DNA of 64,000 nucleotides from Deltaproteobacteria bacterium (GTDB lineage: Bacteria > Myxococcota_A > Polyangia > Fen-1088), in the NCBI GenBank assembly GCA_034439895.1, contig JAWXBF010000003.1, forward strand, positions 6,819-70,818, given 5' to 3'. The notes under the pieces were generated by a model. That model was not told the origin of the DNA and made no database searches. It was given only the letters and a program-made list of their open reading frames with translations. Made by a program: the position numbers and the translations under genes. Shown here in pieces: positions 24,630-64,000 of this stretch (position 1 is its first letter; the number at the start of each line of letters is the position of its first letter).

Positions 24630-24654
24630 GTCGGCCAGAATCTCTAGTCCTTTA
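24630..24654 (-). promoter_or_regulatory. putative sigma-28 (FliA) promoter for flgM: TAAAG-N14-GCCGAC
   Basis: On the minus strand, CTAAAGgactagagattctgGCCGACtcac. TAAA-N15-GCCGA spacing fits the sigma-28 consensus TAAA-N15-GCCGATAA, with 5/8 of the -10 matching. It lies 23 bp upstream of the flgM ATG. Confidence 0.35.
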
Positions 24655-38058: not shown

Positions 38059-38378
38059 GATGCCCCATCCTTGTCGTTGCGGACGATCTCGACGATGCGT
38101 GCGCCATAGCGATCCCCAATTGCAACGGCTTCGGCGCGGGCGACGAGTCGTTCGTTCACCCGCACATCCAGTTTGTCGCCGGTCAACTTGGACAGCGGAA
38201 TGATGGACCCTGGACCAAGTCGCGAACCTACTTCTTTCAGGCTCATGATGACCCGTCCCAGTTCAACCGACAACTCAACCGGAACATCGCCGAGCAAAAG
38301 ATCGAAGGACTCGACCCTCGCCGCGTTGTCGGACTGTCCCTTGGGATTCTCGCCTGGGTTTTTTCCCTCGGTGCTCAT
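38055..38378 (-). CDS. fliN: flagellar switch protein FliN (SpoA domain)
   Basis: LLGDVPVELSVELGRVIMSLKEVGSRLGPGSIIPL...VRVNERLVARAEAVAI. Confidence 0.85.
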   Translation of the reverse strand: MSTEGKNPGENPKGQSDNAARVESFDLLLGDVPVELSVELGRVIMSLKEVGSRLGPGSIIPLSKLTGDKLDVRVNERLVARAEAVAIGDRYGARIVEIVRNDKDGAS

Positions 38379-39339: not shown

Positions 39340-39355
39340 GCAAGCGACGGGCCAG
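39340..39355 (-). promoter_or_regulatory. putative sigma-54 promoter (TGGCCC-N5-TTGCA) 18-20 bp upstream of fliM
   Basis: The minus strand reads cTGGCCCgtcgcTTGCa, one mismatch from the TGGCAC-N5-TTGCW consensus. It has the same geometry as the flgB promoter. Confidence 0.45.
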
Positions 39356-49100: not shown

Positions 49101-49115
49101 GCAAGCGCCGTGCCA
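49101..49115 (-). promoter_or_regulatory. sigma-54 promoter, exact consensus TGGCAC-N5-TTGC, 18 bp upstream of flgB
   Basis: The minus strand reads tTGGCACggcgcTTGC. An exact match like this is expected ~0.1 times by chance in the window, and it sits at the head of the first flagellar operon, next to the sigma-54 activator gene. Confidence 0.5.
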
Positions 49116-49207: not shown

Positions 49208-50239
49208 TCAGACCGCGATCTTGCGAAGACGCTCGACGAGCGTGGTGCGGTTCAAACCCAGAAGGGCAGCCGCTTCTGTTCGGTTTCCAGCCGTTCGCTC
49301 AAGCGCGGTACGAATGAACTTTTCCTCGACCGTATCGACCGCCTTGCGGAGATTGAGGTCGTTGGCTGCCGCTTCGGTTGTATCGTTCGTCGGAAAAGCC
49401 GAGTTCACGACCGCCATCACCGCGCGAATCGGACGCGCCTTTTTCCCGGAGAAACGAATATCCGCGGCCGTCAAAACGCCGCCGCGCTTCATGACGATGC
49501 TGCGCTCAATGGTATGCGCAAGCTCACGGACGTTGCCGCGCCAGGCGTGTTCTTTCAGAACGCGTTCCGCAGAGGCATCGAGTCCGGTTACCGAGCGTTG
49601 CAACCGGGCATTGGTCTCGGTCAGAAAGCGATGCGCCATCGGTGCGATGTCGTCGGCGCGTTCGCGCAATGCCGGCAAGTCGATCTGGATCACCGTCAAA
49701 CGGTAATACAAGTCGGCACGAAAGGTTCCCTCGTCGACCATTTGTTCGAGGTCGCGATTCGTCGCTGCGATCACGCGCACGTCGATGCGGATCTCCTTGT
49801 CAGCGCCAACCGGCGTGAGCATTCCGTCCTGCAAAACGCGAAGCAATTTCGCTTGCGCCTGCAGCGGCAGTTCGCCGATCTCGTCTAGAAAGAGCGTGCC
49901 GCCATCGGCTGACGCCAGGCGTCCTTCGCGGGCGGCGATGGCGCCGGTGAAAGCACCCTTCGTGTGTCCGAAAAGTTCGGCCTCGATTAGGCTGTCTGGA
50001 ATCGCAGCACAATTCAGGGGGACGAGTGCGCGGTTGGCTCGAGGTGAAGCGCCGTGAATCATGCGCGCGACAAGCTCTTTGCCGGTGCCGGTTTCGCCGG
50101 TGACCAACACCGTGCAGTCGGTGTCCGCCACGTTGCGCGCTTCGGTCAGCGATTCCAGGATGCGGGGATCGTCGCCAATGAACTCGGGCGCGAAGGCGAT
50201 GCGCCAGGTTTCAAGGTCAGCATTTGGATCCAACTTCAT
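49208..50239 (-). CDS. sigma-54-dependent transcriptional activator (AAA+ central domain plus Fis-type HTH) lacking any N-terminal receiver or sensor domain; probable flagellar master regulator (FleQ/FlrA-like, PspF-type architecture)
   Basis: Walker A GETGTGKE, the GAFTGA sigma-54 contact motif, Walker B and arginine finger, and a C-terminal HTH (AAALLGLNRTTLVERLRK). The AAA+ domain starts at about residue 25. Confidence 0.9.
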   Translation of the reverse strand: MKLDPNADLETWRIAFAPEFIGDDPRILESLTEARNVADTDCTVLVTGETGTGKELVARMIHGASPRANRALVPLNCAAIPDSLIEAELFGHTKGAFTGAIAAREGRLASADGGTLFLDEIGELPLQAQAKLLRVLQDGMLTPVGADKEIRIDVRVIAATNRDLEQMVDEGTFRADLYYRLTVIQIDLPALRERADDIAPMAHRFLTETNARLQRSVTGLDASAERVLKEHAWRGNVRELAHTIERSIVMKRGGVLTAADIRFSGKKARPIRAVMAVVNSAFPTNDTTEAAANDLNLRKAVDTVEEKFIRTALERTAGNRTEAAALLGLNRTTLVERLRKIAV

Positions 50240-50487
50240 CGAGACAAGGACATCGTCGGGGCCGTCGACCGAGTTGAGGATTTCTTGTGAGAAAACGTGA
50301 CGAATGAGTCATTAAAACATGTCTCTAGAAAGTCTCTCGGTGAACCCAGGCTAGCTCTCCATGGGTGACGGGTTTGGGCGGGAAAGAGAATGATCACGAG
50401 CCCGTACGGCAGGCGCTTTTATCAAAAAAATACGGTAAATTCATCGAAAAATGGCGGTGTCCCGGGTCGCTCTGTTCTTGTGGAAAA

Positions 50488-50527
50488 GGTGACAACTGTC
50501 AATGTGGCGTCACCCAGAGCAGGTGAC
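50488..50527. promoter_or_regulatory. GGTGAC repeats (GGTGAC-N15-GTCACC inverted pair plus a third GGTGAC) in the AT-richer divergent intergenic region
   Basis: GGTGACaactgtcaatgtggcGTCACCcagagcagGTGACacg, in the 428-bp region between the sigma-54 activator gene and the FHA gene. Confidence 0.3.
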
Positions 50528-50667
50528 ACGCAGCAGGTAAACAACGCGATGCGCTTTGCCTAATAACCCGAACGAGGTGTCATGGTTCCCGCGCTTTTTC
50601 ACACACATCGCATCAAGCAGTTCGGCCCAACTGTCGATGTCATAATTCGAGTGCAATCCAGCGGCCC

Positions 50668-51240
50668 ATGGCGATAAACCGAGTCCCACTCCGAGAGCTG
50701 CGACCGCCCACCTCGGGGGGCGGCGCTGCGCAGTATCTCGCTGATTTCATTGAAGATATGCGCAAGGGCGAGGTTAGCTTTGCGTACCAGTACCGCTGGC
50801 CGGCCATGATTGTCACGGGCCTCACCGGCACCTTGAGCGATCTCGGCAGCAGGACCGGGACCCTCGTCACCGACGATCACAGCGCCGATGTGCGCCTCGC
50901 GAGTCTGCTCGTCGGACGGGTGTTCCTGTTGCGCAAGAACGCCAACGCCCAGCCCGGTCAAATTCGGATAGGGCGGGTTGCTGAAAACGACGTTCCCATT
51001 CCCGAGTTTTCGATATCAAAGCATCACTGTCTTTTACGACCTGCGCCAAATCGTACCACGATCGAAGACATGGGCTCGACCAACGGATCTCTCGTCAACG
51101 GAACGAAGCTGATTCCACACCAGCAGTATGCCGTCGAGGATGGCTCCGAAATCGTTCTCGGCCGTTTCGTCTTCCTCTTTTTCACCGCCCGTGGCTTCGT
51201 CGACTACGTCAAGCGTGAACTCGCCGACCTCTCGGCCTAG
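50668..51240 (+). CDS. FHA-domain protein
   Basis: A C-terminal FHA core (IRIGRVAENDVPIPEFSISKHHCLL...IEDMGSTNGSLVNGTKL...DGSEIVLG). Confidence 0.75.
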   Translation: MAINRVPLRELRPPTSGGGAAQYLADFIEDMRKGEVSFAYQYRWPAMIVTGLTGTLSDLGSRTGTLVTDDHSADVRLASLLVGRVFLLRKNANAQPGQIRIGRVAENDVPIPEFSISKHHCLLRPAPNRTTIEDMGSTNGSLVNGTKLIPHQQYAVEDGSEIVLGRFVFLFFTARGFVDYVKRELADLSA

Positions 51241-51251
51241 GAGAAGGTCGA

Positions 51252-52166
51252 ATGGCGAACGACAAGCCAGTCAGTTTGGACGATGTCCTCGCTCGGGTCG
51301 ACAACCTACCGACGATCTCCCATGTTGCAATTCGCGTTGGTGAACTTGTCAACGATCCCAAAATGGGTGCACGCGAGATCTCGAAGGTCATGACTCAGGA
51401 TCCGAGCCTGAGTGCCAAGGTGCTCAAGCTTGTCAATTCGTCCTACTATGCCATTCCGGGCGGCGTGACCGACGTGGAACGCGCGATTTCGTTTATCGGA
51501 TTCAATGCGCTCTATCAGCTGGTTTTGACCGTTTCGGTGTTTCGCGCGTTGAAGACACCGGGCGGTGCCACGTTTGATGCTCGAGGCCTTTGGCTTCACT
51601 CGTTGGCCGTGGGATCGTGTTCGGAAGCACTCGCCCGGCGGATCGGGCATCCCGATCCCAGTACATGCTTCACGGCGGGACTGCTACATGACTTCGGAAA
51701 AATCGCGCTCGCGAAAGCCGAGGGAGAGCGTTTTGCGATGGCGCTCGACAGCGCCCGTCGCGATGGTGTGCCCATGCACATTGCCGAGGCCGAGGTGGGT
51801 TTGCCACCGCACGAGCGCGTGGGCAGTCGTCTCGCCAAGCGGTGGCGTTTTCCGGCGACGCTTCTGATACCGATCGAAAACCACCACAAGAGGCACCACC
51901 AGAGCGTACGTCGCGATCTCTCCACGCCACTGCTGGGTATGCTCGACATCGTCTCGCTTGCAGACGACGTGTGTCGTTTCCACGCGATTGGCGACAGCGG
52001 TTCACCCAAGCCCGAAGCACCGGATGCGGATGCGCTGGACGCTCTCGGCATGACAACGCTGTCGCTTGATGGCATCTACACGGACTTGATGCGCGTCCTC
52101 GAGAAATCGCGTACCTTCCTCGCCCTCATCGACGAGCCTACCGCCAAGTTGGACAAGCTCGGCTAG
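51252..52166 (+). CDS. HDOD-domain protein
   Basis: AKVLKLVNSSYYAIPGGVTDVERAISFIGFNAL...CFTAGLLHDFGKIAL. Confidence 0.8.
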   Translation: MANDKPVSLDDVLARVDNLPTISHVAIRVGELVNDPKMGAREISKVMTQDPSLSAKVLKLVNSSYYAIPGGVTDVERAISFIGFNALYQLVLTVSVFRALKTPGGATFDARGLWLHSLAVGSCSEALARRIGHPDPSTCFTAGLLHDFGKIALAKAEGERFAMALDSARRDGVPMHIAEAEVGLPPHERVGSRLAKRWRFPATLLIPIENHHKRHHQSVRRDLSTPLLGMLDIVSLADDVCRFHAIGDSGSPKPEAPDADALDALGMTTLSLDGIYTDLMRVLEKSRTFLALIDEPTAKLDKLG

Positions 52167-52181
52167 CGAAGCCCGCCTTGT

Positions 52182-53642
52182 TTACTCGGGCTCGCTTGTC
52201 ATCGTTCGCGGCAAGGTCACGACAAAACACGCACCACGATTCGCATGTTTGGCGTACGAGATCGTGCCTTGATGGTCTTTCAGAATCTGCGCCGAGATCG
52301 CAAGGCCAAGACCGCAGCCAGTCCCCGCTGATTTTGAGGTGACATAGGGCTCGAAGAGGTGGTCGATGATGTCGGGAGCAACCCCGGGTCCGTCGTCGAT
52401 GACCTGGACCGATACTGTTTTTGCTGTGGTCTCCACGCTCACGTCGATGGTGCTTCCGTCTGGAGTCGCCTCCCCGGCGTTTCGTATGACGTTGACGAGA
52501 ACCTGCGTCAGCAGCGTCGCATCGCCAACGACCAGGGCTTTGGGCAACCGCGCTATCTGAATCGAGCGACGCTTGCGCGTGTGAATTCTGCAGATCGAGA
52601 CCGCCGAGGCCACCAAATCGGCAACACGACACTGCACCGGGTTTTCCTCACCGGAATGGATGTAGTTGCGCAACGAACGGTACAAGTTGACAAGGCGTTG
52701 CGAACTTTCGATTGCCCCGGCCATGCTTTCCTGCAAATCCGCGTCGCCACCACTTTCAATCGTGGGCGCAAGATCCCCAACGCAGAGTTGAACGTTCTGC
52801 ACGAGCGATGCCAGCTCGTGGGTAATGGAGGCCGTCATCGCACCCAGCGTCGCACGACGATTTAAACCGAAGAGCTGTGCGCGTGCCACTGGGTCGGCGA
52901 GCGCCAACTTGATCACGTTGGGGGCGCCGTTGTCTCCCGACCAGCGCGCCGCCCGTTGAATGAGAAACACGGTTATCGCGTGACTGGTGGCACCAAATCC
53001 ACTCGCCAGCGTTCTAACTTTGCCGTCACTTGTCATCGCCTGGTCAATCCGCCAGTCGGATCCATTTGATCCACCGCTCGGTTGCCCGAAGCCCGCGAGG
53101 GTATGGCTTTGTCCGTCCACGAGCATCGATACGGAAAGTCCGTGGACCTCTCGGATGGTGCGCGCTCGCTCAGCTAAAATTTTCGAGATCTCCACCAAGC
53201 CCTCGGCGCTCGCAAATTGATCGTCTATTCCCGCGGTATCGAGCAGGCTATCGAACGAGGCAGACATGTTGCGAATGCGCTCCCGGTGTTCCAGCGCCCT
53301 TCGCAAGGTCACATCGAGGGCATCGTGCCATGGTTTACCGATCTTGAAAGGTGCTCCGAATCCCATGGTGGCTTTGCGGGCATCTTCGTCGAGGTGACCC
53401 GTCAACATGATCCGGATCGTCTCGGGATTGCACCGACGGGCCGCGTCGAGAACCTGCACGCCGTTGATTTCCGGCATTCGCAAGTCGGCAACCACCGCGT
53501 CGTAAGGCGTTTGGCGCAAACGTTCAATCGCTTCTTTGCCGCTCGACACCGCCTCGACGTCAAAGCTCGCGGCGAGCTCATCGTGTATCGATTCCAGAAC
53601 GTCGATGTCATCGTCGACAACCAATATTCGTTCACGCGGCAT
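52182..53642 (-). CDS. hybrid response-regulator/histidine kinase (N-terminal REC, central GAF-like region, HisKA, HATPase)
   Basis: REC (ILVVDDDIDV, VVADLRMPEINGVQ, IMLTGH); H-box MTASITHELASLVQNV; N box VNVIRNAGEA; DDGPGV; GTGCGLGLAISAQILKDHQG. The start is taken at the internal M (MPRERIL), giving an 11-bp overlap with the upstream PAS-HK. Confidence 0.8.
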   Translation of the reverse strand: MPRERILVVDDDIDVLESIHDELAASFDVEAVSSGKEAIERLRQTPYDAVVADLRMPEINGVQVLDAARRCNPETIRIMLTGHLDEDARKATMGFGAPFKIGKPWHDALDVTLRRALEHRERIRNMSASFDSLLDTAGIDDQFASAEGLVEISKILAERARTIREVHGLSVSMLVDGQSHTLAGFGQPSGGSNGSDWRIDQAMTSDGKVRTLASGFGATSHAITVFLIQRAARWSGDNGAPNVIKLALADPVARAQLFGLNRRATLGAMTASITHELASLVQNVQLCVGDLAPTIESGGDADLQESMAGAIESSQRLVNLYRSLRNYIHSGEENPVQCRVADLVASAVSICRIHTRKRRSIQIARLPKALVVGDATLLTQVLVNVIRNAGEATPDGSTIDVSVETTAKTVSVQVIDDGPGVAPDIIDHLFEPYVTSKSAGTGCGLGLAISAQILKDHQGTISYAKHANRGACFVVTLPRTMTSEPE

Positions 53643-54876
53643 GACTCTCCTTGGAGGGCAGTTGGATCTCGAAGCGGGCCCCGGTTTCACTCGGACAAAA
53701 TCTCACGTCGCCACCAGACTGACGCGCGAGGCGTCTTGCGGTGACGAGGCCAAGACCACTGCCGTCGGGCCGGGTTGTCACAAACGGCTCGAACAGTGCC
53801 TTGCGACGGTCGGGCGCAACGCCTTCCCCGCTGTCCTGCAGGGCCACCGTGATGCCAGCGTCCGACGCCGTTGCCTCGATTCGCAACTGGCCACCGGTTG
53901 GCATCGCGAGAACCGCGTTGTCGATGAGGTTCCACAAAATATGCTGGAAATCAGCGGCGGATGCCCATGCCGACGTTCCGTCCGCAATGTTCGTGGCGAC
54001 CTTGATGCCGTTCAAGCGCGGCTCGAAGAGTGCAATCGCAATGTCAATCTCCTTTCGAACGGCCAGAGTTTCCGGCTCCGACGCGATGTTGCCGCTGCGG
54101 TGGGCGCGCCTGACCGCCGCAATGATGGTCTCCATCCTCGAAGCGGTATCGGACCCCCGTTTCAAAAAACGTGAAGCGCCATCTTTGAGCTCGTCCGAGC
54201 CCTTTTCGCCAATCAATCGATCCAACTGTCGGTGTGCGCTGACGAGCGCCGCAAGCGGATTGTTCAGGCTGTGGGCGATGCCCGCCGACAGTTCGCCGAT
54301 GAGCGCGCGCCGACTGGCCTGTGACAGGCGTGTGCCCATCACCCTGAGTTCGTGGTTTTTCTCGGCCAGTTCACGGTTTCGCATTTCGAGATCGGATACC
54401 GCTTTTTCCAGCTCCGAATGAGCCGAAAAAAGGGCGAGATGCTTTGAGATGAGTTCACGTTCGAGCATCTGCCGCTCGGTGATGTCGCGGGCGATGCATG
54501 CGGCCAGCGGCCCCGTGTTACTGTGTTCGATATGCGCGACGGTCAAGGCAACCGTCACGGGGTAACCATCGATTCGAGCGATGGCTATTTCGTCGTGCAA
54601 GCCCTGACGTTCAATCACCCGTGTGGCACGTTCTCCAGCATCGCAATCATCACTCGGTAGAAACAAGCTGGCCGCAGGTTGGCCCACCAAGACAGCCATT
54701 GAGCTGCCAGTCAGATCCTCCAGCCGACTGTTGGCGCTAACGATGCGCATATCGGAACGCGATACGGCGAACGCAGCTTCGGACGTATGCTCGAAGAGCA
54801 ATCCGAAGATTTTCCTGTCGATATCGCGGATCGGCGCCGATGCGTGCGTTTGCATCCAGATTCTTGCTTCGGCCAT
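53632..54876 (-). CDS. PAS-domain sensor histidine kinase (cytoplasmic)
   Basis: An N-terminal PAS region, H-box SAGIAHSLNNPLAAL, N box WNLIDNAV, DSGEGV and GSGLGLVTARRLARQSGG. Confidence 0.8.
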   Translation of the reverse strand: MAEARIWMQTHASAPIRDIDRKIFGLLFEHTSEAAFAVSRSDMRIVSANSRLEDLTGSSMAVLVGQPAASLFLPSDDCDAGERATRVIERQGLHDEIAIARIDGYPVTVALTVAHIEHSNTGPLAACIARDITERQMLERELISKHLALFSAHSELEKAVSDLEMRNRELAEKNHELRVMGTRLSQASRRALIGELSAGIAHSLNNPLAALVSAHRQLDRLIGEKGSDELKDGASRFLKRGSDTASRMETIIAAVRRAHRSGNIASEPETLAVRKEIDIAIALFEPRLNGIKVATNIADGTSAWASAADFQHILWNLIDNAVLAMPTGGQLRIEATASDAGITVALQDSGEGVAPDRRKALFEPFVTTRPDGSGLGLVTARRLARQSGGDVRFCPSETGARFEIQLPSKESHAA

Positions 54877-54970
54877 GTATGGCGTTTCTGGAGGCCCGAA
54901 ATCTAGACCGTCGCCCCGGACGGGTGACAGCCGAAAGTCCCTTCAGTAACAAGCCCGGCAAGACGATTCC

Positions 54971-56545
54971 TTGGGGACGGTGAGGCGTAGTTTAGGCGAA
55001 GGAGAACCCGAAGAGACCACACAGACCGATGGTCCGGTCCTGGAGCGTGGGCGTTTGCGTTCCGATCGGCCCCGGCTGGTGGTCATCGGGGGGATTGCAA
55101 AGGGCCGACAATTTGCCATTGCCGACGACGGTGCCACGATCGGGCGTTCCTCAGAAGCGACGGTAACGATCGAGGATCGTCGGCTGTCACGGGTGCACGC
55201 CCGCATCGTGACGACGCGGCCCGGCACCTGGATTCTCGAAGACCTCGATAGTAAAAACGGCACGATCGTCAACGGTGAAGCCGTCAAACGCAAGACGCTT
55301 TCCTATGGTGACGAGATTCGCATCGGCGACTCGGCCTTGATCTTCACGCACCATAATCCTGTCGAAGAACAGATCTTTCAGCGCGAGCGGATGGAACTTT
55401 TGGGTCGTCTGGGTGCGGGCGTTGCGCATGACTTCAACAATTTGCTCAGTGCTGCACGTGCAAGCATCGAGTTTCTTGATTCGCTTCCGCCAAACTCCCG
55501 GATCGACGAACCCGATATCCTTGAATGCCGTCGCGACGCGCTGAGCGCGCTCTCGCAAGCCACGACCCTGTCTGCGCGTTTGCTTGGGATGAGCCGGCAA
55601 CAGGCCTATGTTCTCGGTCGCGTGGATGTTGCGGATCTTTGTCGAGATGCGGTCGATCTGTTAAAGCGCACCGTCACGCGATCGATCGCGATCGATTTGC
55701 AGACAGAGCCGAATCTGTTCACGATGGGTGATCGGGGTCAGTTGCATCAAGTGATCATGAATCTGGGCGTCAATGCGCGTGACGCCATGCCGGCGGGGGG
55801 CAAGTTGACGGTTTCTTGTCGACGCGGTAGCGCGCTTGACTATCCGGTTTCCGGTCGCACCGACGGTGACGTTGTGATTCTCAGCGTTTCAGATACTGGC
55901 CAGGGTATGGACGAGGAGACCCGGGAAAATGCCTTTGATCCCTTCTTCTCGACGAAAACCGACCGCGGCGGTACGGGACTTGGCCTCGCCACCGTGCTTG
56001 AGATCGTAAAGTACCACGGCGGTTCGATTGACCTACAATCCGAGCTTGCCAAAGGAACAATGTTTCGCATCTTCCTACCGGCGCCACAAGATGTCGTCGC
56101 TACGGGTCGTGACACGTATGCCGAGTTGCCGTCCCTTGATCGGGCTCGCAGCATCAGCTCGGAATCCATGGTGCGGACGGCTCTTGTGGTGGACGACAAT
56201 CCCGTGATGCGCAGAAGCCTCGCTCGCCTCTTGAAGGCGCAGGGTTTTGAGGTGACGCTTGCCACCAACGGGCAGGAAGGTGTCGAGAGGTTCAGTGAAA
56301 GTCGTCCCGACTTCGTGCTACTCGATTTCGATCTGCCAATTCTGTCGGGTGCCAAGGTTTTTGAACGGCTGCGAACGCTCGATCCCGATATTCCAATCAT
56401 CCTCATGTCGGGTCACGCGACCGCGACGATCGAGCGCATGTCGCAGTGGTTCGGTGATCCGCCACTGTTTCTGCAAAAGCCTTATGGCGCACAGGATCTG
56501 CGCAATGCCATCAGCGAAGTTCTTACCCGAAAAGGTCGGGGATGA
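54971..56545 (+). CDS. FHA-domain / histidine kinase / receiver hybrid (FHA-HisKA-HATPase-REC)
   Basis: FHA (ATIGRSSEATVTIEDRRLSRVHARI...EDLDSKNGTIVNGE...YGDEIRIG); H-box GAGVAHDFNNLLSA; N box MNLGVNARDA; DTGQGM; GGTGLGLATVLEIVKYHGG; C-terminal REC (ALVVDDNPVM, VLLDFDLPILSG, IILMSGH). Confidence 0.85.
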   Translation: MGTVRRSLGEGEPEETTQTDGPVLERGRLRSDRPRLVVIGGIAKGRQFAIADDGATIGRSSEATVTIEDRRLSRVHARIVTTRPGTWILEDLDSKNGTIVNGEAVKRKTLSYGDEIRIGDSALIFTHHNPVEEQIFQRERMELLGRLGAGVAHDFNNLLSAARASIEFLDSLPPNSRIDEPDILECRRDALSALSQATTLSARLLGMSRQQAYVLGRVDVADLCRDAVDLLKRTVTRSIAIDLQTEPNLFTMGDRGQLHQVIMNLGVNARDAMPAGGKLTVSCRRGSALDYPVSGRTDGDVVILSVSDTGQGMDEETRENAFDPFFSTKTDRGGTGLGLATVLEIVKYHGGSIDLQSELAKGTMFRIFLPAPQDVVATGRDTYAELPSLDRARSISSESMVRTALVVDDNPVMRRSLARLLKAQGFEVTLATNGQEGVERFSESRPDFVLLDFDLPILSGAKVFERLRTLDPDIPIILMSGHATATIERMSQWFGDPPLFLQKPYGAQDLRNAISEVLTRKGRG

Positions 56546-58599
56546 CTGCACCCACTGGCAGCGGCGGAATGCAACCTGACGCCGGACCCGCAGGGCTTTT
56601 TGGCAGTCAGGTTGGGCCGTATCGAATCCGTTCGTTGCTAGGCGAAGGCGGCATGGGGGTTGTGTATCTCGCCGAGCACGAGCTGATCGGTCGAAAAGCG
56701 GCGATCAAGATGTTGGCGGCGGACGTGGCCGGCGATTCAGAGGCCGTGTCACGTTTCTTCCTGGAAGCGCGCACGGTCAATCAGATAAGGCACCCCAATA
56801 TCGTTGATGTGACGGATCTCGGACATCACGACACTCAGCCGTACATCGTGATGGAGTATCTCGAGGGCGAAACATTGGCCGATCGCCTGAAGCGGGCGGG
56901 GCCGATGGATTCAACCGTCGCATTGAAAGTCACGCGACAGGTGGCGTCTGCCCTTGGTGCGGTCCATGAGCATGGACTGGTTCATCGCGATCTCAAGCCC
57001 GCCAATATTTTCATATGCGCCCATCCGGATTACCCCGACTTCACGAAGGTTCTTGATTTCGGGATCGCGAAGCTTGTCTCGGTCCATGAAGACGTTGGCC
57101 ACAAGACCCGCGCCGGTGCGTTGTTGGGAACACCGCAATACATGTCACCCGAGCAATGTTTGGGTCAAAGGGATATTGATCCGCGCAGTGACATCTACTC
57201 GCTTGGTGTTGTTTTGTACGCCATGCTGACGGGACGGTTGCCGTTCGCCAATCGTCCGTTTGGCCAGTTGATTGTGGCGCATGTGATGGAGGTACCTGCG
57301 TCACCGCATCAAGTGAATTCGGGGGTTGCCCCCGTCTTGAGTGCACTCGTGATGAAAATGCTCGAAAAGCGACGCGAAGAACGGCCTGCGAACATGTTCG
57401 TCTTGCGTGATTCGATTGATTCCTTGCTGGGCATAGAACACGAAATTCCGGGCGTCCCTATCATGTCGCTCGGCAGCGATGGCACCGGTCCCATTGGTCT
57501 TGCGGCGGCCGCCTTTGCCGATGAAGGCCATACCGCCGAAATGCGGGCGCGGTTGCTGGCAGTCAATCTCGAAGCCACCGAGACCTCCGCAGGAAGTTTC
57601 CGAGACGAAGATTTCGATTCCGATACTTCTGGCTCGCCCGGTACACCTGAACCGACTTCGGCCGTAGTCGGTGGTGCCAGCCGTGCACTTCCCGATCACG
57701 CGACGCTTGTGGAACGGGTTGGTGACTTCATCGACGAACGTCTCGCCGTCGAAAAGATACCCTTGCCGGTGCTGTCGCGGGCATCGGCGCAATGCCTCGA
57801 ACTGATGCGCTTGCCGGGCTTTTCGTTTGCGGATCTTTCCGAGGCCATGATGCGTGAACCGAACCTCGCTCGCCGAATCGTTGCACAAGCGAATCGAGTG
57901 GTGGGTAGCGCATCCACTCAGCGCGTGGTCGGCATCGCGCAGGCGGTTCGTCGGATTGGCGCTGCCGGCCTGCAGCGGACTCTGGTCGAAATGGCAGCTC
58001 GTCCGGCGTTCTGTCCACCGAATTCTCGTTTTGCCCAGGCACTCAAGCGTCCCTGGCACCATGCAATTGCAACCGCGCTGCTGGCGGAACGCATAGGCTC
58101 AAATGCGCAACTGCCGCAGCTTCAACCCATCACGGAATCGCTCTACATCGCGGGCCTCTTGCACTCGATCGGGCGTTGCGTCCTGACGAATTTCCTCTTG
58201 ACCAGTGAACGCCGGATCGCCCGACGCTATGATCTACCCCGTTTACCCTGGGCAGCCTTGCTCGACGCTGCGGATGCCGCGTCGATTCGCGTTTCGGTTG
58301 CCGTCGCACGGGGTTGGAACTTGCCCGAGGACGTCGTGGGTATGTTGGCATCGTGTGGCCTGGTTGGAAGTCGAACCGACAATGGCGCCGCGGCTCCTGC
58401 GGCTGCGGTGGTACTCCGCCTCGCACACGGGATTGCACTTCGCGAAGGGTTCGTGCTTCGTGACGAGGACAAATCCGGTGTATCGAACGACATTCGCGCG
58501 AGCCGAATGCGTCTTGGCCTCGATGAATCCGTGATCGATCGAATGCTTTTCGATCTCCAGAATCACGTGGCTCGACTCGCACGCACGCGCGGCGAGTGA
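56542..58599 (+). CDS. Ser/Thr protein kinase (Hanks type) fused to a C-terminal HDOD domain
   Basis: Kinase motifs (GEGGMGVVYLAEH, AIKML, HRDLKPANIF, DFGIAK, TPQYMSPEQ). A long linker leads to an HDOD domain (IVAQANRVVGSAS...IAGLLHSIGRCVL). The start overlaps the stop of the previous gene (ATGA). Confidence 0.85.
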   Translation: MTAPTGSGGMQPDAGPAGLFGSQVGPYRIRSLLGEGGMGVVYLAEHELIGRKAAIKMLAADVAGDSEAVSRFFLEARTVNQIRHPNIVDVTDLGHHDTQPYIVMEYLEGETLADRLKRAGPMDSTVALKVTRQVASALGAVHEHGLVHRDLKPANIFICAHPDYPDFTKVLDFGIAKLVSVHEDVGHKTRAGALLGTPQYMSPEQCLGQRDIDPRSDIYSLGVVLYAMLTGRLPFANRPFGQLIVAHVMEVPASPHQVNSGVAPVLSALVMKMLEKRREERPANMFVLRDSIDSLLGIEHEIPGVPIMSLGSDGTGPIGLAAAAFADEGHTAEMRARLLAVNLEATETSAGSFRDEDFDSDTSGSPGTPEPTSAVVGGASRALPDHATLVERVGDFIDERLAVEKIPLPVLSRASAQCLELMRLPGFSFADLSEAMMREPNLARRIVAQANRVVGSASTQRVVGIAQAVRRIGAAGLQRTLVEMAARPAFCPPNSRFAQALKRPWHHAIATALLAERIGSNAQLPQLQPITESLYIAGLLHSIGRCVLTNFLLTSERRIARRYDLPRLPWAALLDAADAASIRVSVAVARGWNLPEDVVGMLASCGLVGSRTDNGAAAPAAAVVLRLAHGIALREGFVLRDEDKSGVSNDIRASRMRLGLDESVIDRMLFDLQNHVARLARTRGE

Positions 58600-58616: not shown

Positions 58617-59117
58617 CTACTGAACGACGAACTCAGCGAAGTACAGATGGCTGATGGCCCCGCCACCAAGTGCCTTGTCAATGCGGGCAAGGATCGCTTC
58701 GCCAATCGTATTTTTGCCGCTCTCGCCGAGGGTATCGGCGACCGCCAAGCTTGACAGGTATCGCAATATGTCATCCCGGATGGCGACTTTTTTGGTTTCC
58801 AATTTGGCCTTTGCCCCGTCGTTTCGCAGCTCCAGATCAAACTTCGCCTTGAGATAGCGGGCGCGCCCCTGTTCGTTCAGGTTCACGACGAAGGGATCAA
58901 GGGTAACCATGGGCTTGATCTCGGATTCAGGCCCGGGCCCGTGGTCCTTGGGCAACGATTTCTCCACCTCGGTCACCTTGTGTGAAATCCCCATCGTCTG
59001 AACCACGATGAAAGCCGAAACTGCGATGTTTACGATGCCCAAAATCATCCCAAGTTTGGAGCCACCTGCTTTGGGGACGGCGTCTGATGGTGTTTCTGCT
59101 TTTTTTTCTTCGGACAT
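58617..59117 (-). CDS. fliL: flagellar basal-body-associated protein FliL
   Basis: A single N-terminal TM and a FliL core (TLDPFVVNLNEQGRARYLKAKFDLEL...ILRYLSS). Confidence 0.8.
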   Translation of the reverse strand: MSEEKKAETPSDAVPKAGGSKLGMILGIVNIAVSAFIVVQTMGISHKVTEVEKSLPKDHGPGPESEIKPMVTLDPFVVNLNEQGRARYLKAKFDLELRNDGAKAKLETKKVAIRDDILRYLSSLAVADTLGESGKNTIGEAILARIDKALGGGAISHLYFAEFVVQ

Positions 59118-59175: not shown

Positions 59176-60690
59176 CTATCCGGCTGCACTGATTGGCGCC
59201 ACAATCGGATCGGCCGCGCAAACGCGATTGCGGCCAGACTCCTTTGCCCGGTACATCGCGGCGTCGGCTGCGGCAATCAGGGCCGGAATCGAAACCGTTT
59301 GACCTGCGCCGACCGTGGCGCAACCGAAGGATGCCGTCAAGGGAATGGGCGTTCCGTCTTGCGTTTGAACGGTGAGCTGCGAAACCCGCTCTCGTACCCG
59401 TTCTGCGACGATGAGGGCGCCCGGCGTCGGCGTTTCGGGCAACACCACCACGAACTCTTCACCGCCCCAGCGGGCCGGGAGATCGCGCGGGCGGAAGTTC
59501 TTCAAGAGAAGTCCACCGATCGCTTTCAGGACCGCATCGCCGACGAGGTGTCCGTGTTTGTCGTTGACCTTTTTGAAGTGATCCACGTCCACCATGATGA
59601 TGCTCAGCGGCGTTTTGGTGATGCGCGCTTTGGTCAGCTCGTGTTCAATGAACGTCTCGAACCGATTGCGATTGGCCAACCCAGTCAAGAGATCAGTTAC
59701 CGACTTTCCCTCGGCTTTTTCAGCCCGATCGGTCAGCGAGAGCATCGTTTCGGTCATCTGGATTTCGGTCGAAACAGCAGATAGCAGGAGGGCCTCGCGG
59801 GCTTCTTCCAGGATCTCGTCGATGGTTTCTTGCGAGTCCATCGGTGCTTCGAGCAGCGTGAACAACTCGCCCATTGTGTCGTGTACCCTGGCGAGCAACT
59901 CGTCAAACTTTTCGTCCGTCAAGTTGAGAATCTTTGAGGCGAACGCCCGTGCGTGCCGTGTGGGCAACGCGCGATCAGGCGCCAGCCAGATGTCGGTGAC
60001 GTGGTTTGCGGTCGCGACGATGCGCGAGAGCGTCACCACGCTGGGCTCCGTCTTGTCGTCCGTGATCCCGAACTTGTGACTGTGGGCAATGATCATTGCG
60101 AACTGGGCAGGCAGTCTCCATTTTTCAGCGAGCCAGGCGCCCACTTCGGCGTGATCCGAGCCGAATAACTCCGTTTCCTGCGCGCTCAATTCGCCATGGT
60201 TGTGAATGGATTTCTCAAGGATCGCGCCGTACGTCGGCTCAATCGTTGCCAGGGTCAAGATGCCGATATCCTGCATCAATCCCGCCAAGAAGGCCTCTTC
60301 CAGATCGCGAACTCCGACCAGGGCAGCGAGGTGCCGCGAAACGAGCCCCGACAAAGCAGATCGTTTCCAGTACGCGCGAAACCAGGGCGTTTGAGCTGCC
60401 TTGACCGTCCGTGCAAGCGTAAATGACAGCGCCATGGCGCGCAAGGAGTTGAGCCCCAGCATCGCAACGGCGTGTGATACGGTTGTGACCTCGCGGCGAA
60501 CGCCTAGCATGGGCGAGTTGGCCATCTTGAGAACCTTGGCGGACAGGGCGGCGTCCGTCGTGATGGTGGACACCACGTCGCGAACGTTGGGTTCCGCTTT
60601 TTGGCATTGCTCGAGCACCTTCATGGTGACCGCGGGCAACGTGGGCATACTCTTGGCCTGGGTGAGTCTCGTTTGTAGTGCCGGATCCAT
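59176..60690 (-). CDS. HDOD-GGDEF protein (diguanylate cyclase with an N-terminal HDOD domain)
   Basis: HDOD (AKVLKMANSPMLGVRREVTTVSHAVAMLG...AGLMQDIG). GGDEF with an I-site (RPRD-LPARW-GGEEF) and the preceding DVDHFKKVND. Confidence 0.85.
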   Translation of the reverse strand: MDPALQTRLTQAKSMPTLPAVTMKVLEQCQKAEPNVRDVVSTITTDAALSAKVLKMANSPMLGVRREVTTVSHAVAMLGLNSLRAMALSFTLARTVKAAQTPWFRAYWKRSALSGLVSRHLAALVGVRDLEEAFLAGLMQDIGILTLATIEPTYGAILEKSIHNHGELSAQETELFGSDHAEVGAWLAEKWRLPAQFAMIIAHSHKFGITDDKTEPSVVTLSRIVATANHVTDIWLAPDRALPTRHARAFASKILNLTDEKFDELLARVHDTMGELFTLLEAPMDSQETIDEILEEAREALLLSAVSTEIQMTETMLSLTDRAEKAEGKSVTDLLTGLANRNRFETFIEHELTKARITKTPLSIIMVDVDHFKKVNDKHGHLVGDAVLKAIGGLLLKNFRPRDLPARWGGEEFVVVLPETPTPGALIVAERVRERVSQLTVQTQDGTPIPLTASFGCATVGAGQTVSIPALIAAADAAMYRAKESGRNRVCAADPIVAPISAAG

Positions 60691-60769: not shown

Positions 60770-62128
60770 TTACCCGTGATCGTGGTTTTTGCGGACATTT
60801 CCCGACGGCGGCGCCGGCGCAACGATCCCGTCATTCTTCATGCGCACGGGATCGGCCAGCGTGGCGACCGAACCTGGCGGATGCGGGTACCACCCGGCTT
60901 TGTCGGCGGCGTCTGCCCGCTCTCGCACCTTCAAGAGCGTGAACATGCCACCCATATCTATGTAGCTGAAGGGTCCCGCTCCACCCCGCATTGGCAAGCT
61001 GTTTGGTGGAATGTCCATTTCCATCTCGGCCATGTTGCCCATTCCGGTTGTGCCCATCGTCATGTACCGGGGCACCACACGGTCCATGCGAGCGTCGAGT
61101 TTCGCGGTGTTCGCCCCGAGCATCGGCGGCAACCCGTGTCCCATCTGTGTCATCACGTGATGGGTCATGTGGCAATGCATCGCCCAGTCGCCGAGTTCCT
61201 CGGGCACAAATTCGATCACGCGTGTGCTACCGGTGGGAATCAGAACGGTGGTGTCCGGATGTTGGGCCGATTCGGGAATGTATCCGCCGTCGGTCGCCGT
61301 CGTCTTGAACGACAACCCGTGCAAGTGCACCGGATGATGGTCCATCGGACTCAGGTTGCCGAATCGAATGCGAACCCGTTCGCCCCGTCCAACCACAAGC
61401 GGTGCGGTCCCCGGGAAAGACTTGCTGTTGAAGGTCAGGACGTTGAAGTCTTTCATTTCGCTCGGATTCGGACGGCGCGCCCCGACGTCGACGCGAAACT
61501 CGTGCGTCATGAGCACAAAGTCTCGATCAACCCGCGGTCCGCGCGGCCGGCGCGGATGAACGATGAGCATCCCCGTCATCCCCAGCGCGATCTGGGTCAT
61601 CTCATCGAAGTGCGGATGGTACATGTACGTTCCGGGGTGTCGCACCGTGAATTCGTACATGTAGGTTTCACCCGGTTCGATGGGCGACTGGGTCAGCCCC
61701 GCCACGCCATCCATGCCGTTGGGTAGTACGATTCCGTGCCAGTGTACCGACGTGGGTTCCGGCAAACGGTTGCTGACATAAAGGCGGAGTCTGTCGCCCT
61801 CGACCGCCTCGATCGTTGGGCCGGGCGTGCTGCCATTGTATCCCCAGCACAGAGCCCGAAGACCCGGTGCAAATTCGTGGTCGACTTCCTCGGCCACGAG
61901 GTGACCCACCTTGACGCCATTGACGACCCGCAGGGGTAGGGTAGCCCCATTGGGCGTCTGCACGGCGATCTGTCCGCCGGGCGCGACGATGGGCGCCTTC
62001 TCTGAAACGTGTGACGGTTCAAGCGGCGCCGCGGCCGCAATCGCCTTGGCCTCGGCTGGCGAAACCCGGGTGACGATGGCACCACACACGGCAGAGCCAC
62101 CCATGCCGAAAAAGTTGCGTCGATCCAT
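60770..62128 (-). CDS. TAT-exported multicopper oxidase (CopA/CueO-like)
   Basis: Twin-arginine signal RRNFFG; copper-site motifs HWHG, HPHF, HPVHLHG and HCHMTHH. The start is taken at MDRRNFF and overlaps the stop of the upstream efflux-factor gene. Confidence 0.85.
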   Translation of the reverse strand: MDRRNFFGMGGSAVCGAIVTRVSPAEAKAIAAAAPLEPSHVSEKAPIVAPGGQIAVQTPNGATLPLRVVNGVKVGHLVAEEVDHEFAPGLRALCWGYNGSTPGPTIEAVEGDRLRLYVSNRLPEPTSVHWHGIVLPNGMDGVAGLTQSPIEPGETYMYEFTVRHPGTYMYHPHFDEMTQIALGMTGMLIVHPRRPRGPRVDRDFVLMTHEFRVDVGARRPNPSEMKDFNVLTFNSKSFPGTAPLVVGRGERVRIRFGNLSPMDHHPVHLHGLSFKTTATDGGYIPESAQHPDTTVLIPTGSTRVIEFVPEELGDWAMHCHMTHHVMTQMGHGLPPMLGANTAKLDARMDRVVPRYMTMGTTGMGNMAEMEMDIPPNSLPMRGGAGPFSYIDMGGMFTLLKVRERADAADKAGWYPHPPGSVATLADPVRMKNDGIVAPAPPSGNVRKNHDHG

Positions 62129-62129
62129 C

Positions 62130-63620
62130 TCAGTGTCCTCCCCGGGATTCGCTTGCACTGTCGAGGGTCATCACGGATGTCCCTCCGCCGGGGTCAACGC
62201 GTTTGCCCGCCAAGATTGCCTCAAGTTCGGCGACTGCGCTCCAGTATTCTCGCAAGGTTTCGACCTCGGCGAGTTTGACCTCAAGGGCCTCCCGCCGGGC
62301 TTGCAGGATGTGGTAGATGCCAATCTGCATCGCGTTGTATTGCAAAAGGGTTTGCTCAGTCACGCGCTCCAGGGCCGGTACGATGATTTGCTGATAGTGG
62401 CGGGCACGCGCATGCGCCGATTCAACGCGGTTGCGCGCTTCGCGGGCGGCCGAACGCAGATCGATCGCCATGCCGTAGTACCGTTCCATCAGCGCATCAA
62501 ACTCGGCGTCGAGCGCCGCAGTTGTTCCCTGTCGTCGATTGAAAAGCGGAACTCCGACGCTGACACCCGCACCGAATGCCCAGTTGGGATCGCCCCTTCC
62601 GGTTGCATCGGCCTCGGGATTGCCCCTTAGCCCGTGGGCATCGATCGCGATGTCTGGAAGCCAGCCCTCGGTGCGAGCAACACCGGTTCGGCGCGCAAGG
62701 CTTTCGAGCCGATGTCGCGTCTCCGACAGCTCAAGGCTCGCGCGCAGCGCCCGTGTTTCAAGCTCGGCCGGTGTGTTTGATTTATCCGGGACGGCCCCAA
62801 GTTCTGTTGCTACGCGCCACTGCGCATCGGCACCGTGGGTTCCCAGCAACCGTTGCACGCGTTCGCGTTCGGTGGCGACTTCAAGCGCAAGCTGCGCCAC
62901 GATGATTCGGCCGCGCTCAAACGCGGCTTCTTGATTGGCAAGGTCGAGCGCAGGGATGTTGCCCGCGGATGCCATGGCGCGCGCCGCATCCCGAGCCGCG
63001 GCAGAGCCATCCAGTACTTGCTGCGCGATGCGGAGGCGCTGTTGAGCGGATTGCAACCGGTAAAAGCCGACGCGAACGCGATACCCAACGTCGATTACAG
63101 CCGCTGCGGCGCGAAGCCGTGCGGCTTCGACCTCGGGGCGTGCGGCATTTGAACGTCGCGGGGCAAGCAAGAAAGACGTGAGATCCAATTCCACCCGTAC
63201 CTCCATCGCGGTGTTGCGTTCGGGCAGCAGCTCAACCTCGGCAACTGGGTTCGGAAGCAAACCCGCCTGAAGCAAGTGCCCGCGTGCGATGCCAACGTCG
63301 CGTAGGGTCGCACGCAGTTCACGGTTGTTGAGCAATGCCACCCGGACGGCGCCATTGGCATCAAGCGCCTGTTGCGACACGGCATGGGCGCCCGGGACCG
63401 ACGCGGAATCGGCTTCGTTCAGGCCGTCCCAACCTTCGGTCGACTCGCCCGGCAAGGGCGGTTCTTCCGTCAACGAACGCGTCGTCCGGACCGCGGCACC
63501 TTCCGGGGAGTCAGGCGAAGCGGCCGAGTTGTCTGGAAAGTGATCGGGGACGCTCCGCGTGGCACAGCCGGATACCAGCACGACTGCAAACAAAAATTTG
63601 AAGTTCAAACGCAAATTCAT
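62130..63620 (-). CDS. outer-membrane efflux factor (TolC/CusC/CzcC family) lipoprotein
   Basis: Lipobox LVSGCA; OMF N-terminal repeat motif (VRVALLNNRELRA...ARGHLLQAGLLPNP) and a second repeat. Size ~500 aa. Confidence 0.8.
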   Translation of the reverse strand: MNLRLNFKFLFAVVLVSGCATRSVPDHFPDNSAASPDSPEGAAVRTTRSLTEEPPLPGESTEGWDGLNEADSASVPGAHAVSQQALDANGAVRVALLNNRELRATLRDVGIARGHLLQAGLLPNPVAEVELLPERNTAMEVRVELDLTSFLLAPRRSNAARPEVEAARLRAAAAVIDVGYRVRVGFYRLQSAQQRLRIAQQVLDGSAAARDAARAMASAGNIPALDLANQEAAFERGRIIVAQLALEVATERERVQRLLGTHGADAQWRVATELGAVPDKSNTPAELETRALRASLELSETRHRLESLARRTGVARTEGWLPDIAIDAHGLRGNPEADATGRGDPNWAFGAGVSVGVPLFNRRQGTTAALDAEFDALMERYYGMAIDLRSAAREARNRVESAHARARHYQQIIVPALERVTEQTLLQYNAMQIGIYHILQARREALEVKLAEVETLREYWSAVAELEAILAGKRVDPGGGTSVMTLDSASESRGGH

Positions 63621-64000
63621 GACACTCGTATTATCTAGGCCCATACGGGAAGATCGTGACAGAAAAATTCAGCAAACAGTGGATTCCGAGATCGAGCAGC
63701 TGAGTCCCGACACCTGTTCGATGAGCGAGTTGCTCGGCAGCGCCACCAACACCTGATATGAATATCGGGTGTTTCGAGTTGCAGCCGTTCTTGGCAAAAG
63801 TTGGCGGTCGGCCGGCGTGTTCGCGCTTTCGATTCTCGGCGTCCTTTGGTTCCATCATATGGTGGCTGCGCGCGAGCCGACGACAACCTGGTTGCTGTGG
63901 GATCTGCTGCGGCTGTGGTCCTGGCAAGTGGTGCTTTCAAGCGCCTGTCTTTGTGCCGGCTACCGTGTTCTGAGTTGGCTAGACGATCCTGCTCGACCGG

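Follow-up and report, generated by a model that had tools for sequence, protein, structure and literature searches.

A cluster of six FHA, Ser/Thr-kinase, HDOD and histidine-kinase genes between a receiver-less sigma-54 activator and fliL in an uncultured Myxococcota bacterium

Results

Six signalling genes between the activator and fliL

We analysed a window of 64,000 nucleotides (the whole stretch of DNA considered here, in whose numbering all positions are given) from contig JAWXBF010000003.1 of a deltaproteobacterial genome assembly (GCA_034439895.1) that carries a flagellar gene cluster. Between the gene of a flagellar sigma-54 activator and fliL, positions 50668-58599 hold six open reading frames (ORFs), all of which encode predicted signalling proteins. 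The most interesting and best-supported element of this locus is a feature that it shares with other uncultured Myxococcota, namely the repeated occurrence of a predicted Ser/Thr kinase beside a receiver-less flagellar sigma-54 activator.

On the plus strand, the cluster starts with a 190-aa FHA protein (FHA190, 50668-51240; Pfam FHA, E = 6.9e-19), followed after 11 bp and in the same operon by a stand-alone HDOD protein of 304 aa (HDOD304, 51252-52166; Pfam HDOD, 1.1e-54). Two histidine kinase (HK) genes lie on the minus strand: PAS-HK (53632-54876, 414 aa; Pfam PAS_9, HisKA and HATPase_c) and REC-HK, which combines a receiver (REC) with a kinase domain (52182-53642, 486 aa from the ATG at 53642; Pfam Response_reg, 2.5e-18, and HATPase_c, 5.2e-25). 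The last two genes are again on the plus strand and encode a hybrid histidine kinase with an N-terminal FHA domain (FHA-HK-REC, 54971-56545, 524 aa with a TTG start that is uncertain by a few codons; Pfam FHA, HATPase_c and REC) and a Ser/Thr kinase fused to an HDOD domain (STK-HDOD, 56542-58599, 685 aa; Pfam Pkinase, 8.3e-51, and HDOD, 4e-20). The first-pass annotation had described these six genes at the same coordinates, and ORFs, Pfam matches and database accessions all agree with it. In the NCBI annotation, the accessions run consecutively from the activator (MDZ4693585) to STK-HDOD (MDZ4693591), and the proteins are 100% identical to those of the window; exactly six genes thus follow the activator in an independent annotation. 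Direct reading of the sequence also confirmed the two gene overlaps reported at first pass, ATGA at 56542-56545 between FHA-HK-REC and STK-HDOD, and 11 bp at 53632-53642 between PAS-HK and REC-HK, where the ATG of REC-HK is preceded by the ribosome-binding site AAGGAGAG.

Because the GC content of the cluster genes (0.58-0.60, and 0.62-0.71 at third codon positions) matches that of the flagellar genes and because membrane or hydrophobic segments are absent from all six proteins, the cluster is predicted to be native and its products cytoplasmic. Recent horizontal acquisition was considered and rejected on the same compositional values. A search against Rfam returned 0 families across the whole window.

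The FHA-bearing hybrid kinase and the STK-HDOD fusion

Since the ATGA overlap joins both genes, FHA-HK-REC is predicted to be translationally coupled to STK-HDOD. The FHA domain of the hybrid kinase scored 65.8 bits against a Pfam cutoff of 20.7, which assigns it to the FHA family, and in an alignment of 16 family members G58, R59, S73, H76, N96 and G97 are invariant. The same holds for the H-box histidine H153, N264/N268, D308, G310, G312, G334, G336 and G338 of the kinase part and for D408, D409, D452 and K503 of the receiver. The protein classifies as a hybrid histidine kinase; the Pfam HisKA model itself stayed below threshold. An alignment-based AlphaFold2 model (mean pLDDT 72) gives the fold order FHA, dimerization and histidine phosphotransfer (DHp) helices, catalytic and ATP-binding domain, and receiver. 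The FHA strands span residues 35-126 (block means of ∼78-92), and the DHp helix, which is predicted less firmly (block means of ∼52-77), starts at residue 130. Pfam detected no PAS domain, and the model shows no other input than the FHA domain, which passes directly into the DHp helix. Against the EspA equivalog model NF052573, the protein reached 168 bits with a cutoff of 1400, which leaves it outside that equivalog.

A second paralogue of FHA-HK-REC is present in the same organism (locus L172, 10001-11539; 512 aa, 49% identical), ∼4 kb past the right end of the window. It is preceded by the copper-resistance genes and by genes for two proteins without annotation (769 and 484 aa), outside flagellar genes.

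The kinase domain of STK-HDOD (PF00069) scored 173 bits for a cutoff of 31.7 and is assigned to the Hanks type. Its motifs GEGGMGVVY, AIK (K56), HRDLKPAN (D150, N155), DFG (D172) and SPE are kept in 15 family members. The HDOD part scored 72.6 bits (cutoff 22.9); in the window's clade it has HS in place of HD, whereas other relatives keep HD. STK-HDOD also carries an acidic, Thr-rich linker. Degeneration of the kinase or FHA domains, which had been named at first pass as what would speak against a functional module, is not seen: the kinase Lys and Asp and the FHA Arg, Ser, His and Asn are all kept.

An activator without receiver domain

The activator gene (49208-50239, minus strand) encodes 343 aa with the Pfam domains Sigma54_activat (237 bits), AAA_lid and HTH_8 and an intact GAFTGA motif, and the product is 100% identical to MDZ4693585.1. 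Pfam finds neither a receiver nor any other N-terminal domain in it. Activator and FHA190 operon diverge from an unusually long non-coding region of 428 bp (50240-50667), which contains stops in all six frames and holds no remnant of a receiver upstream of the activator. The first-pass statement that this activator lacks its own receiver domain is therefore correct. The protein belongs to a family of receiver-less orthologues of ∼335-360 aa, in which the helix-turn-helix is invariant and in whose N-terminus and linker no conserved Thr was found as a candidate phospho-site. FleQ (255 bits) and FlrA (233 bits) are among its top sequence matches in the PDB. With the NCBIfam models it scored 308 for FlbD and 255 for FlgR, both with a cutoff of 750, and the NtrC and NorR models also remained below cutoff. 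As far as these models tell, the activator is linked to the flagellum by context and is not a member of a curated equivalog.

A predicted sigma-54 (-24/-12) promoter, TGGCACGGCGCTTGC, lies between the activator gene and flgB (49101-49115, minus strand). It is the sole zero-mismatch match in the 64 kb and is identical in the closest related locus, L001. Four loci with orthologous activators (L167, L168, L169 and L170) carry a sigma-54 promoter match with no or one mismatch at the same place downstream of the activator.

The region 50240-50667 shows no sigma-54 or sigma-70 consensus and no Rfam match, and holds an A/T-rich stretch, tatcaaaaaaatacggtaaattcatcgaaaaatgg. A sigma-28-like match with three mismatches at 50538 was rejected as unconvincing, and scans of the cluster regions for sigma-70 promoters and terminators gave results at or below chance. 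TGGCACGGCGCTTGC lies ∼18 nt upstream of the annotated flgB start; because the leader would otherwise be too short, the true start is probably the Met 10 codons downstream. A one-mismatch sigma-54 site, TGGCCCGTCGCTTGC, is located at 39340-39354 (minus strand), just upstream of a fliN-like gene (38375-39322).

Recurrence of a Hanks kinase between fliL and the activator

Three metagenomic contigs repeat all or part of the cluster. L001 (93% identity) has all six genes and both flanks. L005 (82-88%) extends from REC-HK, which is cut by the contig end, through the copper-resistance genes, and its contig stops before FHA190/HDOD304 and the activator. In L006 (56-60%), the HK-REC half of a gene that is 60% identical to FHA-HK-REC is followed by STK-HDOD, fliL and an HDOD-GGDEF gene; the contig ends before any FHA region.

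Further loci were collected as those of receiver-less activator orthologues with 53-62% identity. L167 (activator 62%) contains fliL, STK-HDOD, the activator and flgBC-fliEF in the order and orientation of the window, and the other five cluster genes are absent. In L171, genes for a receiver protein, a 421-aa kinase and a REC-HK lie, in this order, between fliL and the activator. In L169, the activator-flgB unit is preceded at a distance of 4-8 kb by genes for a 320-aa kinase, a REC-HDOD and a REC-HD_5 protein. In L168 and L170, a receiver-containing activator is followed directly by the receiver-less one and then by fliL, with no kinase between activator and fliL. These tandem activators (L168, 8414-11020; L170, 8415-11062) recall the two-tier hierarchies of the FleQ/FleR type; the window shows the receiver-less one only. 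Conserved synteny beside flagellar genes, proposed at first pass as a check, was thus found for the cluster within the window's clade, whereas beyond this clade only the kinase recurs and the other five genes do not.

Of 6 flagellar activator loci, 5 have a kinase match no more than 10 kb away from the activator, compared with 2 of 15 generic deltaproteobacterial or Myxococcota activator loci (Fisher p = 0.006) and 4 of 80 activator loci overall (p = 2e-5), numbers that represent six lineages, a small sample, and a background that is not strictly matched. This background came from a scan of a genome collection with the activator, which mostly returned generic NtrC-type regulators from many phyla (best match 51%). 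A metagenome scan with the STK-HDOD alignment relied on patterns that are generic kinase motifs, and among the matches listed only L087 and L088 had HDOD fusions, neither of them flagellar. A single ancestral 'flagellar kinase' is not supported, as the kinases of L167, L169 and L171 are no closer to that of the window than non-flagellar paralogues are. Because the closer relatives of STK-HDOD are non-flagellar and the kinases of L169 and L171 resemble it no more than generic kinases do, the recurrent feature is 'a Hanks kinase in the fliL-activator slot', not the six-gene island and not one orthologous kinase.

The FHA190/HDOD304 and PAS-HK/REC-HK pairs

FHA190 represents a family of ∼165-200-aa proteins with a conserved N-terminal module of ∼60 residues and a canonical FHA domain (PF00498, 68.5 bits for a cutoff of 20.7, hence a predicted FHA family member). 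In an alignment of 16 relatives, T65, G102, R103, S117, H120, N139 and G140 are invariant, and Thr65 is placed ∼15 residues before the FHA core. Matches in the PDB were the FHA domain of Rv1747, OdhI, GarA and, weakly, ArnA, and the protein also aligns with positions 37-130 of the NCBIfam EspA model, which correspond to the FHA region of EspA. With the GarA/OdhI model NF041660 it scored 27.4 bits (cutoff 200), the FHA part alone matching, and it is not a member of that family. The invariant Thr65 suggests a resemblance to the phospho-switch of GarA/OdhI, by likeness and not by membership. The nearest FHA190 homologue outside the clade is P0362 (45% identity), which apparently shares a 56.6-kb contig with the minimal locus L167.

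HDOD304 scored 185 bits with the HDOD model (PF08668, cutoff 22.9) and belongs to this family. In an alignment with the Geobacter HDOD structure 3HC1, a di-iron HDOD protein (PMC12075610), His116, His146-Asp147 and an HH motif are common to both; Campylobacter Cj0248 (1VQR) is a weak PDB match.

For REC-HK, the first-pass annotation had placed a GAF domain between receiver and kinase. We did not find it: the middle region of ∼150 aa (residues 120-280) has no Pfam match even at E ≤ 1. A single-sequence AlphaFold model (mean pLDDT 41, below 50 from residue 93 on) is too poor to judge the fold.

Flagellar surroundings

A complete flagellar cluster runs on the minus strand from fliD (19258) to flgB (49083) and encodes FlhG/FleN at 30011-30994. 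FliL (58617-59117, minus strand; Pfam FliL, 1.4e-21; 166 aa with one membrane helix at residues 22-40) is convergent with STK-HDOD and is the sole FliL match among the window ORFs scanned. Its gene stands apart from both fliM/fliN and the main flagellar cluster. In L168 and L170, fliL directly follows the receiver-less activator behind a sigma-54 promoter. Because of this arrangement, the adjacency of activator and fliL looks ancestral, with the signalling genes presumably inserted between them.

Immediately beyond fliL, a seventh signalling gene that the first-pass annotation had missed encodes an HDOD-GGDEF diguanylate cyclase (59176-60690, minus strand; Pfam HDOD, 7.4e-52, 176 bits, and GGDEF, 4.8e-47). 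Its translation contains RPRD-LPARW-GGEEF, that is, an RxxD I-site and an intact active-site motif. Both this gene and fliL are on the minus strand, 58 bp apart with fliL downstream, and their synteny extends to L001, L005, L006 and L172. The other flank of the flagellar cluster, also missed before, carries two HKs (8887-10521 and 15356-16273), a REC-EAL protein (12060-13331), a REC-GGDEF-EAL protein (13336-15345) and a fourth HDOD protein of 408 aa (17311-18537). The flagellar cluster is thus bracketed on both sides by four HDOD proteins and five cyclic di-GMP (c-di-GMP) or two-component genes.

Copper-resistance genes for a multicopper oxidase and an outer-membrane efflux protein (60770-63644, minus strand) come directly after HDOD-GGDEF and are syntenic in L001, L005 and L172; L001 adds a P-type ATPase. 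Within the flagellar cluster, the only switch-protein candidate scanned (38375-39322, minus strand, 315 aa) matches the FliM, FliN and SctQ models in its C-terminal ∼70 residues only, and no N-terminal or middle domain of FliM was detected in it; a canonical CheY-binding FliM may be divergent or encoded elsewhere. The FliO-containing ORF (37006-38058, minus strand) is unusually long, with 350 aa, and a FlgJ-like protein (24644-25420, minus strand) combines the rod-binding domain with Peptidase_M23 instead of a glucosaminidase domain.

Discussion

The reading that we prefer, with slightly less than even confidence, is that the cluster is an Esp-like signalling module, accreted at a recurrent 'signalling slot' between fliL and a receiver-less activator in flagellated uncultured bacteria of the Myxococcota type. 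From the gene content, residues, domain order, coupling, synteny and sigma-54 promoter observed here, we infer every phosphorylation and binding step that follows as well as the link to motility. The recurrent element would be a Ser/Thr kinase of the Hanks type, which in the window carries a degenerate HDOD domain and to which the window's clade would have added five genes: an FHA-HK-REC coupled to the kinase, the PAS-HK/REC-HK pair and the FHA190/HDOD304 pair. Targets of STK-HDOD would be Thr residues of partner proteins or of the acidic, Thr-rich linker of STK-HDOD itself. The hybrid kinase could then read the phospho-Thr through its FHA domain and shift its autokinase or phosphatase activity, as proposed for Myxococcus EspA; binding would be expected to alter this activity because the FHA domain is the sole sensor and is fused directly to the DHp helix. 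FHA190 might act as an adaptor, either as a second phospho-Thr reader or as a GarA/OdhI-like switch through Thr65, and PAS-HK and REC-HK may supply further inputs, so that three soluble HKs and two receiver domains would form a branched phosphorelay. The output could act on motility by way of c-di-GMP enzymes and/or by protein contacts that control the receiver-less activator, candidate enzymes being the HDOD-GGDEF protein by fliL and the REC-EAL and REC-GGDEF-EAL proteins on the other flank.

Several observations weigh against this reading. The cluster encodes no histidine phosphotransfer (Hpt) protein, output response regulator or PP2C phosphatase, so that its output can only be guessed. The intergenic regions of the cluster contain no sigma-54, sigma-28 or sigma-70 consensus, and its operons are therefore not obviously part of the flagellar regulon. 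The source organism is an uncultured metagenome-assembled genome (MAG). The closest relatives of STK-HDOD outside the clade (45-47% identity) sit by ABC-F and transketolase genes, while the flagellum-linked STK-HDOD of L167 is only 36% identical. In pairwise scores, the kinases of L169 and L171 do not exceed generic kinases in similarity to the window's STK; simple orthology thus does not explain why a kinase recurs, and the abundance of kinases in Myxococcota genomes could be part of the reason. The small sample and loosely matched background of the proximity test are further limits. A 45% homologue of FHA-HK-REC in MAG GCA_022184915.1 is non-flagellar, lies next to a PilZ gene and is on another contig than the STK-HDOD of that MAG.

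The cluster could instead be a generic signalling cluster without a dedicated flagellar role, the gap between flagellar units being a permissive site and the proteins serving development, stress or metabolism, a possibility that we regard as somewhat unlikely. Ser/Thr kinases, FHA proteins and hybrid HKs abound in Myxococcota genomes, and STK-HDOD and FHA-HK-REC both belong to populous Myxococcota families that are also found away from flagellar genes. Apart from the relatives by ABC-F and transketolase genes, STK-HDOD is found in non-flagellar marine contigs, where it follows GAF-PAS-HK-REC and PAS-HK genes, and FHA-HK-REC is part of a Myxococcota family of ∼49 clusters, one member of which lies beside genes for PilZ and a resistance-nodulation-division pump; its second paralogue in the same organism is non-flagellar as well. 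A generic role would also fit the lack of sigma-54 and sigma-28 promoters in the cluster and the copper-resistance genes right beyond fliL and HDOD-GGDEF, where the flagellar context stops. The first-pass annotation had held that homologous modules in non-flagellar contexts, dispensable for motility, would speak against its proposal; relatives of STK-HDOD and FHA-HK-REC (45-47%) in non-flagellar contexts do exist, which goes part of the way. However, L167, L171 and L169 all have a Hanks kinase in the same slot, either between fliL and the activator or next to them, although these kinases are not close orthologues, and the frequency is above that at generic activators. Moreover, HDOD, c-di-GMP and two-component genes stand on both sides of the flagellar cluster, and the order STK-HDOD, fliL, HDOD-GGDEF is kept down to 56% protein identity.

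A bolder reading, which we consider rather unlikely, is that in flagellated Myxococcota eukaryote-like Ser/Thr signalling has functionally replaced the receiver of the sigma-54 flagellar master regulator, and that the Hanks kinase in the slot gates class II transcription. The gating would be direct or would pass through a GarA-like FHA adaptor and an FHA-gated hybrid HK. Thr phosphorylation would then stand at the head of a bacterial flagellar hierarchy, in convergence with the control of the archaellum by ArnA/B/C/D in Archaea. Slightly less probable is a reading in which Ser/Thr phosphorylation stands in for the receiver because STK-HDOD phosphorylates either the activator or the divergently encoded FHA190, which, as a detached FHA input or GarA-like switch, would bind and gate the AAA+ ring. 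Thr and not Asp phosphorylation would in that case control class II flagellar transcription. Receiver-less activators such as PspF and HrpR/S are controlled in trans by binding partners, and the activator of the window consists of AAA+ and helix-turn-helix domains only. The kinase is the immediate divergent neighbour of the activator in L167 and is two genes away in L171, and FHA190 offers an invariant Thr before an FHA domain that resembles those of GarA and OdhI, with its homologue P0362 (45%) apparently on the 56.6-kb contig of L167. Fusions of FHA domains to activators next to kinases also exist (L110; Jelsbak et al. 2005, as cited in PMC4320627). However, the activator family has no conserved Thr in its N-terminus or linker, and L167, L169 and L171 have no FHA190 gene at a distance of up to 10 kb from the activator. 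In L168 and L170, a second, receiver-containing activator is directly upstream and no kinase separates activator and fliL, and FlhG/FleN (30011-30994), the usual antagonist of receiver-less flagellar activators, could suffice for control.

We consider it very unlikely that the module tunes the motor and not transcription, with HDOD domains as protein-interaction adaptors that would link kinase and c-di-GMP state to FliL, the stator or the switch and so adjust rotation or stator engagement post-translationally. In favour of this reading, fliL is the constant neighbour of STK-HDOD both in L167 and in the window's clade, and HDOD-GGDEF, with a gap of 58 bp, seems to share a transcript with fliL. 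The HDOD domain of STK-HDOD has lost the HD aspartate, as would fit a non-catalytic adaptor like SadB (PMC12075610), and deletion or overexpression of a single-domain HDOD protein lowers swimming in P. syringae (PMC11813219). Against it, no interaction between an HDOD and a flagellar protein is known, the neighbours of fliL in L168 and L170 are different (neuB glycosylation genes), and the ORFs scanned showed no brake of the PilZ/YcgR type.

Textbook accounts of bacterial flagellar hierarchies feature control by His-Asp phosphorylation, sigma factors and c-di-GMP. We found no description in the literature of a Ser/Thr kinase and FHA readers wired into such a hierarchy. If the recurrent kinase beside the receiver-less activator is functional, it would show how swimming is regulated in flagellated, uncultured branches of a kinase-rich phylum known for gliding. 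It would also provide a compact natural case of FHA-gated HK signalling, with the FHA domain as sole input, and a testable role for the poorly understood HDOD domain. Should it have no motility function, the locus would still illustrate the accretion of signalling genes at a fixed slot of the flagellar cluster.

Comparison with known systems

To the first-pass annotation, the combination of genes was not a described flagellar system. Our literature search, which covered FHA proteins and Hanks kinases together with flagellar sigma-54 regulation, agrees in so far as no bacterial flagellar system of this composition was found described, and for HDOD together with threonine kinases it returned only one unrelated paper. 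However, the parts have precedents, and in Myxococcus both FHA-bearing sigma-54 activators and the feeding of a hybrid HK by Ser/Thr kinases are known.

With respect to the activator, Pseudomonas FleQ (with FleN and c-di-GMP) and Vibrio FlrA, master regulators with a degenerate receiver or none, are comparable in that a sigma-54 activator heads the flagellar hierarchy without Asp phosphorylation; FlhG/FleN is encoded in the flagellar cluster and c-di-GMP enzymes surround it. The activator of the window differs in having no N-terminal domain (343 aa), and we know of no Ser/Thr kinase or FHA protein that is a component of the FleQ or FlrA systems. In the same phylum, FHA-containing sigma-54 activators of M. 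xanthus (Jelsbak, Givskov & Kaiser 2005, as cited in PMC4320627) tie Ser/Thr-kinase signalling to sigma-54 activators, and the metagenomic locus L110 has an FHA-activator fusion beside a kinase. Here, by contrast, the FHA domains are found on a separate small divergent protein and on an HK, and are not fused to the activator.

FHA190 is built like GarA and OdhI of Actinobacteria, small proteins with an N-terminal Thr-bearing segment followed by the FHA domain. In these, the segment is a short disordered ETTS tail, whereas FHA190 has a conserved region of ∼60 residues, and the window offers no TCA-cycle context. HDOD proteins are known to influence flagellar synthesis or swimming, examples being GsmR of Xanthomonas and Cj0248 of Campylobacter. 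In Pseudomonas, SadB and PSPTO_4229 of P. syringae do so (PMC11813219, PMC12075610), and deletion or overexpression of the single-domain P. syringae protein lowers swimming (PMC11813219); PMC6543031 is a further paper on this subject. None of these motility-related HDOD proteins is fused to a Hanks kinase or encoded together with FHA proteins.

Control of a motility or secretion nanomachine by a Hanks-type kinase and an FHA reader has two parallels. One is the PpkA-Fha1-PppA pathway of the type VI secretion system, in which a Hanks-type kinase and an FHA reader regulate the secretion machine. The other is the repression of the archaellum in Sulfolobus by ArnA/ArnB with the kinases ArnC/ArnD (PMC6509490). 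Both differ from the present cluster in the machine concerned, the Arn system being archaeal, and in having no HK or HDOD component.

The closest resemblance is to the Esp system of Myxococcus, in which EspA and EspC are hybrid kinases and PktA5 has been proposed to interact with EspA (PMC4320627). In common are the phylum, the presence of several HKs together with Hanks kinases, and the N-terminal FHA domain on a hybrid HK with a C-terminal receiver, and the NCBIfam EspA and EspC models are among the best named matches for all three histidine kinases of the cluster. However, EspA has the architecture FHA-PAS-PAS-HK-REC, whereas the hybrid kinase of the cluster has no PAS domain and the FHA domain as sole input. 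Further differences are the fusion of the Ser/Thr kinase to HDOD, the lack of an EspB-like gene and the setting among flagellar instead of developmental genes. The output of Esp is the proteolysis of MrpC, and an MrpC-like target is not evident in the cluster. The first-pass proposal that two FHA domains beside a Hanks kinase imply phospho-Thr-dependent coupling to a histidine kinase gains from the conserved residues, from the FHA domain being the sole input and from the coupled genes; its principle, a Ser/Thr kinase feeding an FHA-bearing hybrid HK, has a precedent in EspA/EspC and PktA5/PktB8 of Myxococcus. In all, the cluster probably represents a motility regulator that is specific to its lineage and assembled from known parts.

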